A stretch of 15,337 bases of DNA. Origin: a virus (lineage: Duplodnaviria; Heunggongvirae; Uroviricota; Caudoviricetes). A program made the translations under genes and the position numbers. Shown here one piece after another: positions 953 to 8,569 of this stretch (its first letter is position 1; the number at the start of each line of letters is the position of its first letter). The stretch covers positions 1 through 15,337 of the IMG/VR virus record IMGVR_UViG_2534681673_000006; one strand, written 5' to 3'. A model generated the notes under the pieces. It made no database searches. It was not told the origin of the DNA and saw only the letters and a list, made by a program, of their open reading frames with translations.

Positions 953-1234
953 TTACCGCCGTAACCGCTCCGGCTTCTTCCAGTGATACGTGATTTTCTC
1001 CTTCTCCCGATACAGTTCAACGCGGCGATTGTAGGCCAGCATTTCCAGAACGCGGATCCGTATGTCGCGCATATCCGCATCATTAAGCTGGATACCATCA
1101 CGGCGCATCACCTCAGCAACAACACGCGCATAATTTTCGGCTGTCACGCTGTCCGGCTGCGTGGTCTGTTCGTCAGCCTGCTGGCTGATTCCAGAGACGC
1201 GGCGGATTAATCGCAGTATTTCGGCTTCTGTCAT
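953..1234 (-). CDS. Hypothetical protein, 93 aa, immediately downstream of TerL
   Basis: ATG at 1234 preceded by GAGG-type SD 8 nt upstream; 13 nt after the terL stop. No recognisable domain. Confidence 0.5.
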   Translation of the reverse strand: MTEAEILRLIRRVSGISQQADEQTTQPDSVTAENYARVVAEVMRRDGIQLNDADMRDIRIRVLEMLAYNRRVELYREKEKITYHWKKPERLRR

Positions 1235-1247
1235 GCTGCTGACCTCA

Positions 1248-2909
1248 TTACACCCCGCTAAATTCTTCCAGTTTCTGGCGGTGGCTGTCGCTTATATCAA
1301 AAGCAAAATCCTCATGCTCTGCCTGGAATGTACCAAACGCCATCAGCGCCGCCACGCTCGGGTCTATCTTGTTCGGTGATTTTTTCTTGTTCGGCTTGAT
1401 ATTGGCGTTCGCGTCACTCTGCATCACGACGTTACTCATCGACCAGGACAACACCGGATCGCCACGATGCACAATCACCCTGCGGTTAACAAAAACTTCG
1501 AACGATTTCGCCGCCGGACTGAATCTGAGGTAGGTTTGCGGGAACGGCTCCACCTCAAAACCAGCCCCCTGTAATTGCGTCCTGAGATGCGTGGCGTTCC
1601 ACGTATCAAAGCCCACCAGCCTGATATTAAATTTCTCCGCATCCTGCATGATGTCATCTCTGATCCGGTCGTAATCAATGCAGTCACCTGGCGTTGTGCG
1701 TATCCAGCCCGCTTTAGCCCACTGGCGATAGACAGCGCGGTTTTTATTGGCGGGGTTCTGTAGCTGGAACTCCGGCAGATAATGACGGGAAACCAGCATG
1801 ATATTTTTACCGACCGGAAAGGCATAGCACACGCTGGAAATATCGCTGGTTGATGATAAGTCCAGCCCCGCGTAACACTCCTGCCCGTGTAAATCTTCCT
1901 CCGTGAACGTTCCGGCACACTCAGCCCATGCGCCGTTACCCATCCACGGGGTAGCCCCCTGGCACCAGATATTAAATCGCTTTGTCATCATCTCCACCCA
2001 TTGCGACGGAATACCCCGCGCTTTCTGGATGGTTGAGGCCAGTTTTTCACGATCCACGGAAACATCGATGTTAGGGTTAGCCTTTATCCACATCGCCGGA
2101 TCATCAACCTCGTTTTCGTCGTCCAGTTCGTAAATCAGTACAAAAATTGAATCGTTGACCTCTTCGCCGTCCAGGATCTGGCAGCAATAATCATAGTGCT
2201 GCTTACAGGCTGAAACGACGTTACTGCCCGATGTGGTAATGGCAAATAACAGCCCTTCGGGACGTGCGCCCATCCCCAGCTCAAGCGCGGAATAAACGCC
2301 GTTATCGGGGTGTAGGTGGTATTCGTCCACGATGGAAAGGCTGGGGTTTGTTCCCTCGATGGTTGCCGCTTTTGCTGCCAGCGGCTTTAACAGGCTGTTG
2401 CTTTTCGGGTGCATCACCTTGTGGGCCTGAATATTCACCCGCCTGCGTAACGGTCGGGATAAAAGGCACATCTGACGCGCATCATCAAAAACGATCCGCG
2501 CCTGGTCACGGCTCACCGCTGCGGTGTAAATATCCTGCTGCCCGTTCTCCATAATCAGAAACCAGTTAGCCAGAATCGCGGCGGTCGTGGATTTCGCATT
2601 TTTGCGCGGCACTTCGATAAAGGCGCTCGTGTATTTGCGCCGTCCGGTGGCCTTAACCTTAAAGCCGAGGATGCACGCAAAGGCGAACTGCTGCCACGGC
2701 TCCAGCTCAATGGGTCTGCCACGCATCGGCCCTTTTACGTGCGGGCACACCCTGGAAAAGGCAATAAACCGCTCCACAACCTCACGATCGAACGTGTAAA
2801 GGGGGCTTTCAAGGTCCGAAAAGTACCGTTTAACGGCCTGTTTCAGCCGTTTACAGGCCGGAATTTTGCCCGTTTTTACGTCTTCTGCGTACTTATTCCA
2901 GGCGGTCAA
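1248..2909 (-). CDS. Terminase large subunit (Terminase_1 / HK97-like TerL)
   Basis: 553-aa ORF with N-terminal ATPase region (EVPRKNAKS Walker A-like, IVDEYH) and C-terminal nuclease region typical of TerL. Apparent TTG start at 2909 with AGGA SD; overlaps terS end by 17 nt. Confidence 0.85.
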   Translation of the reverse strand: MTAWNKYAEDVKTGKIPACKRLKQAVKRYFSDLESPLYTFDREVVERFIAFSRVCPHVKGPMRGRPIELEPWQQFAFACILGFKVKATGRRKYTSAFIEVPRKNAKSTTAAILANWFLIMENGQQDIYTAAVSRDQARIVFDDARQMCLLSRPLRRRVNIQAHKVMHPKSNSLLKPLAAKAATIEGTNPSLSIVDEYHLHPDNGVYSALELGMGARPEGLLFAITTSGSNVVSACKQHYDYCCQILDGEEVNDSIFVLIYELDDENEVDDPAMWIKANPNIDVSVDREKLASTIQKARGIPSQWVEMMTKRFNIWCQGATPWMGNGAWAECAGTFTEEDLHGQECYAGLDLSSTSDISSVCYAFPVGKNIMLVSRHYLPEFQLQNPANKNRAVYRQWAKAGWIRTTPGDCIDYDRIRDDIMQDAEKFNIRLVGFDTWNATHLRTQLQGAGFEVEPFPQTYLRFSPAAKSFEVFVNRRVIVHRGDPVLSWSMSNVVMQSDANANIKPNKKKSPNKIDPSVAALMAFGTFQAEHEDFAFDISDSHRQKLEEFSGV

Positions 2910-3249
2910 GCTCGTCCTCTTCTTCTGTTTCCGGTGGATTTTTACGGCGGCTTATCGGGTCAAAACCGAGCAAGGAGGCCATTTTTATCATCACTCTTTC
3001 AGCGTCGGATTTTGCGCTTAATGCGGGGTTTCTGCTCTCGCCGCCCTGACTGTTAACAATGCTGAACCCGCGCGCCGCAAGGTCTGCAACGGCTTTCCGG
3101 TAAATGGAGTAGTTGACACAATACAGTTCCAGATTGCTCCAGTCGGCGGGGGTCAGGTCTCCCCGTTCCGCAAGCTGCCGCGATTTTTCCCGCCACTGCT
3201 TCACGGCGATATCATCCAGGTAGGCGGGGGCTTTCGGTGGTCTTGCCAT
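2893..3249 (-). CDS. Terminase small subunit, P27 family
   Basis: 118 aa; conserved P27-family TerS pattern (KQWREK...LELYCVNYSIYRKA...NPALSA...LGFDPISRRK) with acidic C-terminus. Sits directly upstream of terL. Confidence 0.75.
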   Translation of the reverse strand: MARPPKAPAYLDDIAVKQWREKSRQLAERGDLTPADWSNLELYCVNYSIYRKAVADLAARGFSIVNSQGGESRNPALSAKSDAERVMIKMASLLGFDPISRRKNPPETEEEDELDRLE

Positions 3250-3538
3250 GCTTATTTTTTCGCCAGATTATTTTTCAAAAAATTCCCGTGCATAAAAATT
3301 TGAGGAGGCGTTCGGTGCCCGGCGGGGTCGGGTTGGTCCTGAAAACGCCCCCCACCCCGTCATACAGCCTCATCAGCGATTGCGGAAACATTCCATAACC
3401 TCGCGGTCACGGTCGGTTAATCGCTTCGCTGTGATGCGTTCTGCGCGTCCTGACGCTTTATCTTTATGCCCTGTTTCCTGTGTCTTCCATGCGTCACGCT
3501 GCCTTATAAGTCCACGGATAAGGCGGTTTTGCTCCCGC
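3250..3538. other. HNH-terS intergenic region; candidate cos site (G-rich quasi-palindrome about 3317-3359)
   Basis: 289-bp non-coding gap at the position where HK97-like cos phages carry cos, between HNH and TerS. Contains gcccggcggggtcgggttgg ... cgccccccaccccg. Positional inference only. Confidence 0.3.
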
Positions 3539-3979
3539 TCATTCATCAGCGTCATACATCCAGTTATTGCGGTTAGCGGCCCGTTCTTCCTCTTCACGAA
3601 ATCCACCTGCGGCACGCTTGCTTTTTGTTGCCGGATCAAGCCATTTCGTTTTCTGGTTATGACACGCCTGGCACAATGGTTGATGGTTCCATTCGGGCCA
3701 GAAGAGAACATCATCACCGCCATTAATCGGGATAATGTGATCCACCACCACGGCGGGCGTATATATCCCCTTCTCAAGGCATCGCACGCATAACGGGTTT
3801 TTACTCAGATACATGGCGCGGTATTTGTCCCACTGTCTGGAATATCCACGCGCGCGGCGGTGTCCTCGTCTGGCATCCTCTGCACGCCATGCCGCCCGCC
3901 TGTGCTCCTCACACTTGCCGGATTTAACGCGCCTGTTACAGCCTGGTTCTGTGCATCGTCTTAATGGTTGCCACGGCAT
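3539..3979 (-). CDS. HNH endonuclease (phage packaging-associated)
   Basis: 146 aa; Cys-rich N-terminus (CTEPGCNRRV...CEEH) and HNH core VVDHIIPINGGDDVLFWPEWNHQPLCQACHNQKT. Adjacent to terS as in HK97-type cos systems. Confidence 0.8.
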   Translation of the reverse strand: MPWQPLRRCTEPGCNRRVKSGKCEEHRRAAWRAEDARRGHRRARGYSRQWDKYRAMYLSKNPLCVRCLEKGIYTPAVVVDHIIPINGGDDVLFWPEWNHQPLCQACHNQKTKWLDPATKSKRAAGGFREEEERAANRNNWMYDADE

Positions 3980-4275
3980 CAGTACACCCCCACATCACGG
4001 TAAGCCGTCCAGAGTGCGCCTATCGTCATGGGTACGCGTGTTTTTGCGTTATCCGCGACAATCTGGCGATTTTCATACAGGTGAGCGATAAACATCATGC
4101 AGCCAATCTTTATGGCTGGCGTGAACTCCAGCCCGTCATCAAAGCGCCTGCCTATGTGTATCTGGCACGCCTCAAGCGATGCGGCAATGTATCCGCTGAT
4201 TAACTGGTCTTCATCGTCGCCATCGATGCGGCAATGGAGTTTCACTTCTTCCAGGGTGATAAGTTCTTCTGTCAT
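3979..4275 (-). CDS. Head-tail connector protein (gp6-like)
   Basis: 98 aa; N-terminus ITLEEVKLHCRIDGDDEDQLISGYIAASLEA is the gp6-like connector signature. Stop overlaps the HNH start (TGATG). Confidence 0.7.
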   Translation of the reverse strand: MTEELITLEEVKLHCRIDGDDEDQLISGYIAASLEACQIHIGRRFDDGLEFTPAIKIGCMMFIAHLYENRQIVADNAKTRVPMTIGALWTAYRDVGVY

Positions 4276-4610: not shown

Positions 4611-5818
4611 TCCGGTTTTTCTCCCTCGCTGATTTTTACTTCCTGTTTCCATGCCTGGCTGAACTCATCACCACCATCACGCGGTGACAGTCCTTCACGT
4701 TCGCGGGCTTCGTTCGGACACATAACGCCGGATTTGATGCCGCGCTCATAGGTGGCAAAGCGTTCGCCAGGTGTGGCCCGTAACAGGTCCGCGCTGTCAA
4801 ACTCCACCTGATACCGGATACCAGGTACAGGCGAGGCCACCAGCAGGGCGTTTTTTATCTGCTGCTCAAAGTTCGCCAGCCACGGGCGCATCGTCATGGT
4901 GAGAAATGCGCGGCTTGCCTCGCTGAAATTGCTGTAGGTGCTGTTGCTGTATTCCTGCAAAAAAATCGGCGAGACGTTGAACATTCGGGCGATGTCTTCA
5001 ATGGTGAAGCGACGGGAGGCCAGCCATTCAGCATCCTGATTACTCATGCCCAGCTGCTGATAGCTCATACCCCCTTCAAGGATGGGCGTTTTTCCGGCGT
5101 TTCTGGCCCCTTTGTAGCGTTCCAGTGCGGCTAATGCCTGTTTGCCCTTCACGCCGTCCAGCCATTCGCCTGACGTGATAACCCCTGCCGCCATCATGCC
5201 ATCACGCATCACGCTCGCGCCGTGGCGTTGTTGGGCCAGCCCAAGCCCCAGCGATTCGCGGCAGATGGTTACAGGTGAGCGCCCCATAAAGCCGTCATCC
5301 GTGGAGTAACGAAGGTGAAGTACTTCCCACGGTAAATAGTTGCGGGTGTTTCCGGTGTAGGCGTCAGTGATGCAGTAGCGCCAGTTGTGTTCGCCTGTCT
5401 GCTCCACGTTCACCGACTGCGGCGGGTAAGGATGTAAAGCCGCCGGAAAACCATCACGCCCCCACTGAATCACCGCATAAGCATTACCGTTTAACAGGCA
5501 GTGGCGGATCATCATTCGCTTAAACTGGTAGGGGGTTTGCCATGCGTTCGGGCGCTCGTTGAGGATGTGATCGACCGGATGAGAATCAAGCCACTCGCGG
5601 GCCTCCTTCCCCTTCTCATTGCGTACCAGGTACAGGTAACACGGCATGGTAGCCACCGCCTCAGAGATGACCGTGACGGCGTTCATGACGGCGGGCAGTG
5701 ATTCCGCTGTCCCCGATGATACGTACTCACCCGCCCCCGTGTTCGATGTGCCAGCCAGCGCCATAAATTCATCAAGCGTCATGCTGCGCTGCTCTTTTTT
5801 TCTTCTGAAAGGCCACAT
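4607..5818 (-). CDS. Portal protein, HK97 family
   Basis: 403 aa; LLNGNAYAVIQW, LHLRYSTDDGFMGRSP, GKTPILEGGMSYQQLGMSNQDAEWLASRRFTIEDIARMFNVSP match the HK97 portal family pattern. Strong GGGGGTG SD. Confidence 0.85.
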   Translation of the reverse strand: MWPFRRKKEQRSMTLDEFMALAGTSNTGAGEYVSSGTAESLPAVMNAVTVISEAVATMPCYLYLVRNEKGKEAREWLDSHPVDHILNERPNAWQTPYQFKRMMIRHCLLNGNAYAVIQWGRDGFPAALHPYPPQSVNVEQTGEHNWRYCITDAYTGNTRNYLPWEVLHLRYSTDDGFMGRSPVTICRESLGLGLAQQRHGASVMRDGMMAAGVITSGEWLDGVKGKQALAALERYKGARNAGKTPILEGGMSYQQLGMSNQDAEWLASRRFTIEDIARMFNVSPIFLQEYSNSTYSNFSEASRAFLTMTMRPWLANFEQQIKNALLVASPVPGIRYQVEFDSADLLRATPGERFATYERGIKSGVMCPNEAREREGLSPRDGGDEFSQAWKQEVKISEGEKPE

Positions 5819-5819
5819 A

Positions 5820-6392
5820 TCACACCCCCGCTAAATCCACCCACCAGCGGCGATTATCCGCACGCGGCATTTTTTCGGGGTGCTGCTCATACAGGGAACG
5901 GCGGGCCAGCTCCACGCCGGAATCAGGGTAAGCCGGAACGGATGTAACGGTAATTTCGTACAGTTCCGCCACCAGCACGGTGCGCACGCATGGATCTGTT
6001 GTGGTATCCCATACATCCTTACGGGAACGAAAGCCAAAGCTCATGCCGGATATATCACCACGTTTAACCAGTTCGATAACGTCGCGCCCTGTGCTGGTAT
6101 CCGGTGGGGTCAGTTCAAAGCGTAACCCTGTTTCGTCCTCTTCCAGTTTCAGCGTGCCGGAACGGGTACGCCCCAGTAACATGCTGTGGTCATGCTCATA
6201 CAGGCCGCGAACGTCATTACCCGCTGCAAGCCATTCAGTAAACGCTCCCCGCTGGAATTTTTCGTAAAACTCACCCCATAACAGTTCTGAAAGCTTATCC
6301 CAGCGAACAACGTAGCCCGTCAGCGTACCGGCTCCGCTGGTGGTGATTTCCGATGACCGGATTTCCATACTCTTCATAATTTTTTCACCCAT
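5820..6392 (-). CDS. Prohead protease, HK97 family (peptidase S78/U35)
   Basis: 190 aa; LTGYVVRWDK...GAFTEWL...LYEHDHSMLLGRT...ISGMSFGF...TSVPAYPDSG fits the HK97 prohead protease pattern. Start ambiguous: ATG 6392 or ATG 6377 (the latter has a GGGTG SD). Confidence 0.8.
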   Translation of the reverse strand: MGEKIMKSMEIRSSEITTSGAGTLTGYVVRWDKLSELLWGEFYEKFQRGAFTEWLAAGNDVRGLYEHDHSMLLGRTRSGTLKLEEDETGLRFELTPPDTSTGRDVIELVKRGDISGMSFGFRSRKDVWDTTTDPCVRTVLVAELYEITVTSVPAYPDSGVELARRSLYEQHPEKMPRADNRRWWVDLAGV

Positions 6393-7626: not shown

Positions 7627-7679
7627 GCGGCAAACACTCAACCGTTTTTCATAAGGAAATCAGCAATCGCACCGATCGT

Positions 7680-7875: not shown

Positions 7876-8148
7876 TTAGCTGTCTGTGTAATTACGCCAT
7901 ATTTCATCGCTTACACCATCCATACCCATTTCAGCATAAGTGCGATCGACTGCCTTTCTCAGGTCTCCGAAGTTATCCGGCGGCTCCGGTGGCCTCTGTG
8001 CCTTCCTGGAACATTCCAGCCGTCGCATCGTAACCTGATGCCGTTCCTTGTCTGTCTCCACCAGTTGCATGACTTCACCCCATCGCGCCGCCGCCCTCCG
8101 GTAAAAGCCTTTTGCCTCGAGTTCCTCCGCTATGCGGTCATGTGCCAT
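7876..8148 (-). CDS. Small regulator-like protein, 90 aa, possibly PerC-family (tentative)
   Basis: Start at ATG 8148 with GAGGGGG SD, 10 nt after the SSB stop. IAEELEAKGFYRRAAARWGEVM resembles, from memory, PerC-type small activators. Last gene before the head-operon control region. Confidence 0.45.
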   Translation of the reverse strand: MAHDRIAEELEAKGFYRRAAARWGEVMQLVETDKERHQVTMRRLECSRKAQRPPEPPDNFGDLRKAVDRTYAEMGMDGVSDEIWRNYTDS

Positions 8149-8158
8149 CGTCACCCCC

Positions 8159-8569
8159 TCAGAACGGAATATCATCACCGTAAGGGTCATCGCCTCCCGC
8201 TGGTGGCTGATTACCCTGTGTGCCTGTGGCTTTGCGTCTGTTCCCGCCAGGACGTGCCGCGCGGGCACTGATTACGCTGTCCGCAATAACCTGATACCCC
8301 TGCCGTGTTTCCCCGTTCTGTCCGGTCCACTGGCTTACCTGCATCGTGCCGGATACGCTGGCAACATCGCCTTTTTGATGTTTAGCCAGGAAATCGGCCT
8401 GTTTGCCAAATGCGATAACCGATAACCATAACGTCGCCTGTCCGTCATGTGCCTGGCTGCATGGCAACGATACCGCCATACGCGCCAGAGTCATCGGTGT
8501 GCCCTTGCTGCTCTGTTTTACCAGCGGGTCGTCCACCAGCCGCCCGTAAGCTGCAATTTGTGCTGTCAT
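8159..8569 (-). CDS. ssb: Single-stranded DNA-binding protein
   Basis: 136 aa; N-terminal OB-fold pattern (IAAYGRLVDDP...WLSVIAFGKQADFLAKHQKGD...VSQWTGQNGETRQGYQVIADSV), Gly/Pro-rich linker and the canonical acidic tail DDIPF. GAGGTGG SD. Confidence 0.85.
   Translation of the reverse strand: MTAQIAAYGRLVDDPLVKQSSKGTPMTLARMAVSLPCSQAHDGQATLWLSVIAFGKQADFLAKHQKGDVASVSGTMQVSQWTGQNGETRQGYQVIADSVISARAARPGGNRRKATGTQGNQPPAGGDDPYGDDIPF

Follow-up and report, generated by a model that had tools for sequence, protein, structure and literature searches.

The stretch of DNA analyzed here, which we call the window, is 15,337 nt long and is an integrated capsid-forming PICI (cf-PICI) in Escherichia coli, a relative of EcCIEDL933 but not EcCIEDL933 itself. 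All long open reading frames (ORFs) in the window's ORF list lie on the minus strand. From position 7637 down to 1248 on that strand, Pfam recovered genes for the capsid, protease, portal, and two connectors, followed by hnh-terS-terL. These genes and the attachment (att) core are as follows.

7637-6432, minus strand: major capsid protein (Pfam)
6392-5820, minus strand: prohead protease (Pfam)
5818-4607, minus strand: portal (Pfam)
4652-4272, minus strand: head completion protein (Pfam)
4275-3979, minus strand: head-tail connector (Pfam)
3539-3979, minus strand: HNH endonuclease gene (Pfam HNH, E = 1.8e-08; phrog_144, E = 8e-45)
3373-3546, minus strand: small conserved gene, 57 aa (PGAP hypothetical protein WP_000174068.1; phrog_3173)
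2893-3249, minus strand: terS, P27-family small terminase (Pfam Terminase_4, E = 1.3e-23; TIGR01558, E = 1.9e-16)
1248-2909, minus strand: terL, large terminase with ATPase and nuclease (Pfam TerL_ATPase and TerL_nuclease)
211-233, no strand assigned: att core repeat TGACTACACCAGTGACTACACCG, a 23-nt direct repeat found at both island ends in a near-identical locus

At higher coordinates, Pfam identified PerC, SSB, an AAA_25 helicase, Phage_AlpA, and Phage_integrase, the tyrosine integrase running past the end of the window. The combination of integrase, AlpA, and replication module that is a trait of cf-PICIs is present both by Pfam and in the PGAP annotation of the near-identical locus (L001, E. 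coli RM10042), and no tail or lysis genes were found in the window's ORF list, Pfam results, or annotation. Between its att repeats the island in that locus measures about 15.3 kb, which fits the cf-PICI range of 10 to 18 kb. The repeat at 211-233 marks the terL-side end of the island and is predicted to be internal to the packaged genome. Positions 2800 to 4000 are 100% identical to E. coli O43 RM10042, and this stretch was matched in 533 of 5,426 complete E. coli genomes. In a straight overlay of the full length on the RM10042 locus, 9,692 of 15,337 positions match, which points to indels or replaced modules outside the packaging genes.

Induction by a helper phage and transfer with helper tails have been shown for EcCIEDL933 and KpCIDSM30104 in the cf-PICI papers. 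The window island shares with both the order int, alpA, replication, capsid-protease-portal-connectors, and hnh-terS-terL, as well as the size class and the motifs of the gap described below, but it is a distinct island, inserted in tqsA in RM10042. Its TerS shares 81 to 83% identity with the copies that come from EDL933 and DSM 30104; for the EDL933-derived record OR845787.1, TerS identity is 81% and nucleotide identity is about 77% over part of the gap and the start of terS. Directly upstream of the capsid operon lies a gene for a PerC-family transcriptional activator (7876-8268, minus strand; Pfam E = 6.8e-44), which may be the activator of that operon. PerC relatives are regulators of virulence genes in pathogenic E. 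coli. On the other side of the packaging genes, a 93-aa gene after terL (953-1234, minus strand) matches phrog_1561 (E = 1.5e-55), and the approximately 700 bp from 234 to 952, up to att, are low in GC, mostly noncoding, and absent from Klebsiella-type relatives.

An earlier note on this DNA had placed a candidate cos site in the interval from 3250 to 3538, between the HNH gene and terS. The coordinates are correct, with the HNH stop at 3539 and the terS start at 3249. However, the note's description of these 289 bp as noncoding did not survive closer analysis, because 3373-3546 encodes a conserved 57-aa protein; the true noncoding gap is thus the 123 bp from 3250 to 3372. The ATG of the small ORF at 3546 overlaps the HNH stop, and the start at 3555 chosen by PGAP gives 60 aa. 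Its product is basic, carries the conserved C-terminal motif RDRE[VL][MR]ECFRNR, and matches phrog_3173 across the full 57 residues (E = 6e-37), with no match in Pfam or NCBIfam. In relatives, the frame is intact at 50 to 58 aa in 124 distinct nucleotide versions, and a 7-codon indel keeps it. Variation is highest at the third codon position (11.7, 9.7, and 15.9 for positions 1, 2, and 3), and the median dN/dS is 0.34 at a dS of 0.91. The small ORF is absent or very short in the divergent relatives L238, L241, and L288, where the G-run block described below follows almost directly after the HNH stop; the gene is therefore common, not universal. The cf-PICI packaging module comprises nine genes (He et al. 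2025 preprint). All genes of the module are needed for transfer: mutation of eight abolished it, and a mutant in hypothetical gene 1792 reduced it severely (Alqurainy et al. 2022 preprint). The small ORF may be this ninth packaging gene, the 1792 of the cf-PICI papers.

Several hundred loci related to the window were gathered by a TerS-based search and motif scans. To avoid circularity, conservation was measured solely in loci found through terS. In the direction of transcription, the order of elements in the gap is constant among relatives: the G-run block gGGgtgGGGGaggTTTTcAgGAC, 21 variable nucleotides ending in GGCAC, a C-rich 10-mer, CTCAAATTTTT, the block acGCaCGGt.ATTTTTTtgAAAATAA, and a variable stretch up to the terS ATG. 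Numbered from the predicted cut, with +1 as base 3304 on the minus strand, the elements are as follows.

3336-3358, minus strand: G-run block gGGgtgGGGGaggTTTTcAgGAC, -54 to -32; mean of 1.57 bits in terS-found loci
3315-3335, minus strand: spacer of fixed length (21 nt) and variable sequence, ending in GGCAC(C); mean of 1.02 bits
3305-3314, minus strand: predicted 10-nt cohesive end, -10 to -1, reading 5'-CGAACGCCTC-3' on the minus strand and GAGGCGTTCG on the plus strand; placed by the contig ends of a relative
3294-3304, minus strand: most conserved block, CTCAAATTTTT, +1 to +11; 1.89 bits per position
3268-3293, minus strand: block acGCaCGGt.ATTTTTTtgAAAATAA, +12 to +37; 1.70 bits per position

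In the terS-found loci, the gap elements carry 1.57, 1.46, 1.89, and 1.70 bits per position, compared with 1.82, 1.82, and 1.17 bits at codon positions 1, 2, and 3 of terS. The noncoding blocks, being close to codon positions 1 and 2 and above position 3, are thus constrained as strongly as protein-coding positions. Specifically, CTCAAATTTTT, which would form the first bases of the packaged genome, is exact in 88 of 98 distinct regions and has one mismatch in 9 more. Spacing is conserved as well, with 31 nt separating the G-run block from +1 in 181 of 184 distinct relatives. Sequence varies in the 10-mer between the predicted nicks, of which the 157 distinct junctions have at least 23 versions. 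CACCCGCCCC is the commonest of these and the window's own version occurs in 14, with the pattern CnnnnGCC(C/T)C being kept. The G-run pattern occurs in at least 119 contigs of IMG/VR, 75 contigs from metagenomes, and 11 species-representative genomes of Enterobacterales, the last including E. coli/Shigella, Klebsiella, Kluyvera, Serratia, Erwinia, Pectobacterium, Pluralibacter, Phytobacter, and Rosenbergiella. We speculate that this block could be a nuclease or termination signal. The block at 3268-3293, with its T-tract at +23 to +28, is proposed as a candidate TerS recognition site.

Two relatives have ends within this gap. The first, IMGVR_UViG_3300022664_000095 (L273 and L162), is a metagenome contig of 15,518 nt that is island-sized and circularly permuted with respect to the integrated form. 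It starts at CTCAAATTTTT, the equivalent of 3304, 60 nt before terS, and ends with GGCAC, the equivalent of 3315, 21 nt after the G-run block. Because the corresponding interval is 31 nt in nearly all uncut relatives (181/184), the contig is without exactly the C-rich 10-mer. Sequencing reads stop at a physical end, and 3' overhangs are lost during end-polishing, so that a 10-nt gap matches the prediction of a cos site with 10-nt 3' overhangs. From 5' overhangs, a 10-nt terminal duplication would be expected, and from a circular assembly, a k-mer overlap. The fact that 10 nt are missing, not duplicated, argues against 5' overhangs. We therefore place the minus-strand nick at 3304|3305 and the plus-strand nick at 3314|3315, provisionally for the window itself, a geometry that would give 3' overhangs. 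Phage lambda has 12-nt 5' overhangs, no HNH protein, and a Nu1-type TerS that works with IHF. The tripartite logic of its cosQ-cosN-cosB is plausible here as an upstream block, a nick site, and a downstream TerS site. A lambda-type cos was rejected, given the missing nucleotides at the contig ends and a TerS of the P27 family.

The second case is LR881103.1 (vB_KppS-Ant, or Ant; L082), a linear assembly of 16,548 nt from particles for which K. pneumoniae DSM 30104, the strain carrying KpCIDSM30104, served as host. The record was described as a filamentous ssDNA prophage in the vB_KppS-Ant paper; it is the packaged genome of the K. pneumoniae DSM 30104 cf-PICI and carries capsid, portal, HNH, terS, and terL genes. 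The record starts 22 nt before terS and ends at TTTTCAGGAC. When compared with the chromosome of ATCC 13883 (= DSM 30104; NZ_KN046818.1), it is identical at 3000 of 3000 positions on each side, and 69 nt spanning the cut point are absent. This loss brackets the predicted cut and would fit terminal loss during library preparation. Ant and the metagenome contig share the same permutation and are 89 to 96% identical across aligned backbone blocks. In both, int (5123-6343 of 16548 in Ant) and the joined att are internal. In addition, a 2.3-kb gene after terL in Ant is labeled as a tape measure protein, a label that looks doubtful. Ant and the metagenome contig are both about 78% identical to the window across terS-terL, and neither comes from the window's subfamily. 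The exact ends are those of one metagenome contig, to which Ant adds a wider gap of 69 nt, and the window element, as a relative of both, would be expected to behave as they do.

These ends bear on much of what the earlier note had put forward. Its central suggestion, that cos lies between the HNH gene and terS, gains support from the fact that independent assemblies of excised or packaged DNA from two relatives break here and nowhere else. It is further strengthened by the cohesive ends reported for KpCIDSM30104, by the homology of TerL and HNH to HK97 gp2 and gp74, and by the in-register alignment with HK97 cos, all considered below. The range that it gave for the ends, 3300-3370, contains the positions predicted from the relatives (3304/3305 and 3314/3315). 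Its layout for the packaged genome, running from terS to HNH with int and att inside, is the one seen in the Ant record and the metagenome contig, except that the right end follows the small conserved gene rather than HNH directly. A metagenome scan with the G-run motif gave 75 matches and no further contig that ends at the site, and two subfamily scans of IMG/VR found no further ends. Other apparent ends in the gap were set aside. L099 and L199 are adjacent stored pieces of one contig, and L140, the nearest case, stops at GGCACC in an isolate draft and could reflect an assembly break at a repeat boundary. L351 stops 33 nt after the G-run motif, which is possibly not a contig end.

The earlier note had also drawn attention to a G-rich quasi-palindrome at 3317-3359. 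The inverted repeat exists: its arms, 3323-3332 and 3350-3359, are 10 nt each, lie 17 nt apart, and are complementary at 9 of 10 positions (90%). However, it is lineage-specific and no more stable than chance. The G-run block includes its left arm, and the right arm of this window-specific palindrome lies in the variable spacer. Compared with dinucleotide shuffles, neither the RNA fold (minimum free energy of -30.3 kcal/mol, z = +0.18) nor the DNA fold (z = -0.06) has excess stability, and in a set of 30 diverse relatives the bases can pair in 63.0% of cells versus 63.1% in shuffles. The palindrome is therefore not a conserved cos element, and the predicted cut falls just outside it. These results also weigh on the possibility that the conserved gap is a transcription signal only, either an intrinsic terminator or an attenuator that follows the small ORF or a promoter that drives terS-terL, with cos located elsewhere. 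A G-rich stem can indeed be drawn, with ATTTTT some bases later, and in all relatives the G-run can pair with a C-run near the cut. Yet a second possible stem pairs no more often than expected (68.5 versus 68.5% in shuffles), neither this stem nor that of the palindrome shows covariation, and RNAalifold on the relatives returned solely the invariant G-run/C-run pairs. Promoter and terminator consensus scans of the minus strand from 2800 to 4100 found no match, nor did an Rfam search. An intrinsic terminator was rejected on the absence of a scan match, z-scores near 0, and the lack of covariation; the hairpin, terminator, promoter, and RNA readings of the gap were each tested, and none was supported. 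Furthermore, a transcription signal would leave the breaks in assemblies of particle DNA at this place unexplained. We regard this explanation as very unlikely.

The arrangement at the locus can be compared with that of phage HK97, in which the HNH gene (gp74) is last, terS is first, and terS starts at base 50 of the RefSeq record. The cos site of HK97 has 10-nt 3' overhangs (PMC11331095; PMC9410871). Its TerS binds +15 to +29, where an A/T tract occupies +24 to +29, and cleavage is enhanced by gp74 (PMC11331095; PMC9410871). The numbering in the HK97 paper agrees with the RefSeq record (T16, C:G at 21, A:T at 24-29). By BLASTP, the window's TerL is 27% identical to HK97 gp2 over about 500 aa (E = 6e-47), and its HNH protein is 39% identical to gp74 (E = 2e-19). 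For TerS there was no detectable similarity to gp1 (BLASTP E = 2.4). The window TerS belongs to P27/Terminase_4 and gp1 to another family: in Pfam, gp1 had no match above the cutoff and none to Terminase_4, its best being YgfZ_barrel (E = 0.025; 15.1 bits against a cutoff of 27.2). With the two TerS proteins unrelated in sequence, carrying the HK97 TerS site over to the window is an analogy only.

We compared the junctions themselves in a register that was fixed beforehand, with the first base of the metagenome contig set to HK97 base 1 and positions -60 to +35 compared without gaps. The cf-PICI majority consensus agreed with the HK97 cos junction in 46 of the 95 positions, which is the maximum and is reached by 2 of 80,076 offsets on both strands of the HK97 genome. 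The metagenome contig matched at 43 of 85 positions, a score reached by 2 of the 80,076 offsets and exceeded by none. Taken alone, the window matched at 37 of 95 positions, and 129 offsets did as well. An nhmmer profile of the 157 cf-PICI junctions gave no significant match to the circularized HK97 genome. Given the weak score of the window and this null result, the likeness to HK97 is positional and weak and not a demonstrated homology; as such it supports the predicted cut. The features shared by the two are a site between the HNH gene and terS, 10 nt between the nicks (predicted ones in the window), and several short motifs: a run of G residues from about -55 to -43, CAAAACC from about -32 to -26, AC|C where the upstream nick falls, TTT(A/T)ACGC from +8 to +15, and the A/T tract GATTTTTTT from +21/22 to +29/30. 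Besides the family of TerS, the systems differ in the conserved small gene that the window has between HNH and cos, in the overhang (CGAACGCCTC versus CGCCGCCAAA in HK97), and in the element itself, since the window island is 15 kb long, lacks tail genes, and has small capsids. The cos SaPIs provide another comparison: the staphylococcal phages phi12 and phiSLT and cos SaPIs such as SaPIbov5 reportedly need HNH, TerS, and TerL together. The cos SaPIs borrow the terminase of their helper and carry the helper's cos, whereas the window island brings its own terminase, HNH, and cos.

Taken together, our results suggest that the 123 bp from 3250 to 3372 are the cos site of a cf-PICI built on the HK97 plan, a reading to which we assign a probability of roughly 80%. 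It draws on the positions at which relatives break, the conservation and spacing of the blocks, the match in position to HK97 cos, and the fact that TerL and HNH are homologous to HK97 proteins. Once a helper has induced excision at att, replication would yield concatemers of the island (after Alqurainy et al.). The island's own P27-family TerS would recognize the block at about 3268-3293, just inside the left genome end, and TerL and HNH together would then nick the gene-sense strand at 3304|3305 and the opposite strand at 3314|3315, 10 nt apart. The products would be 10-nt cohesive ends, CGAACGCCTC and its complement, probably with 3' polarity. The DNA would enter the capsid terS first, continuing through terL, att, and int to the replication genes and then the capsid genes, and packaging would stop when the following cos is reached, directly past the small ORF. 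Fixed at 31 nt from the cut, the G-run block at 3336-3358 would be part of the signal. The pairing of particular proteins with particular blocks is our proposal, made by analogy with HK97.

Alternatively, the gap could hold a pac-type initiation site, where a single cut is followed by headful packaging so that the ends are not unique. Small terminase genes often contain a pac site or lie beside one, and a lone initiation cut would likewise interrupt assemblies around this position. Headful packaging would not be expected to leave the metagenome contig as it is, of exactly unit length, lacking 10 nt, and with both ends at one site. Once packaged, the DNA of KpCIDSM30104 joins into concatemers via cohesive cos ends (He et al. 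2025 preprint), an HNH gene beside terS-terL marks HNH-assisted cos systems in the literature, and the window's TerL is homologous to gp2 of HK97, which is of the cos type. Pac-type initiation is, for these reasons, highly improbable. The least probable of the explanations that we considered is that cos lies elsewhere, for example at 600-950 downstream of terL, which the earlier note had named as the alternative place for the ends, and that the breaks between HNH and terS are assembly artifacts of the G/C runs. Such homopolymer runs can lower Illumina coverage, and 234-952 is largely noncoding. However, more than 180 other assemblies pass through the G/C runs unbroken, and a dip in coverage would not remove exactly 10 nt that match the HK97 geometry. 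Ant and the 15.5-kb contig are unbroken through the region after terL, where their similarity to the window stops at the end of terL; terS, terL, and HNH, whose products must recognize cos, are conserved. The 600-950 segment is a variable accessory one that has no counterpart in the two broken relatives, and the region after terL is among the variable accessory zones of He et al.

As recently described and widespread satellites, cf-PICIs build their own capsids and move between species. The text of the cf-PICI preprints (Alqurainy et al. 2022; He et al. 2025) states that cos is used and gives neither its position nor its sequence. An HK97-style cos in a known satellite family is otherwise what the HK97 model predicts and comes as a modest surprise; the new part is the proposal at the nucleotide level. 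With it, packaging specificity becomes testable, including why an island and its helper do not package each other's DNA. The proposal also defines a minimal signal for loading foreign DNA into cf-PICI capsids and allows virome contigs of cf-PICIs to be recognized as complete genomes. More tentatively, the site could represent a modular cos code, in which the nuclease-facing blocks and their spacing are common to HK97-like helpers, the 10-nt end and the 21-nt spacer set the partners for cross-packaging and end joining, whole arms are swapped at cos, and the phrog_3173 protein is a dedicated factor for cos recognition or termination that has no counterpart in HK97. We consider this larger scheme doubtful.

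Some islands appear to be recombinant at the junction. In L012/L192, L023, L025, and L055/L173, all from E. coli, the upstream flank of one subfamily is joined to the terS-side flank of another, in both directions, with the switch located somewhere from about -6 to +12 of the predicted cut (approximately 3293-3311 in the window). Crossovers within some 18 nt of the cut hint at the swapping of whole arms at cos. One reading of the switch is an exchange of arms by cohesive-end joining; another is ordinary recombination in the most conserved 25 nt. In a separate case, a Shigella flexneri island (L367; CP182556.1, approximately 3077-3130) has a deletion between two CCCCGCC repeats that extends from 15 nt after the G-run block into codon 9 of terS. 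Since it removes the cos core and the start of terS, this island has decayed and should no longer package. Finally, IMGVR_UViG_3300016725_000266 (L287 and L385; 21,312 nt) bears two different cos-type junctions on one contig, possibly because two islands lie in tandem, because the assembly is chimeric, or because the contig is a hybrid concatemer.
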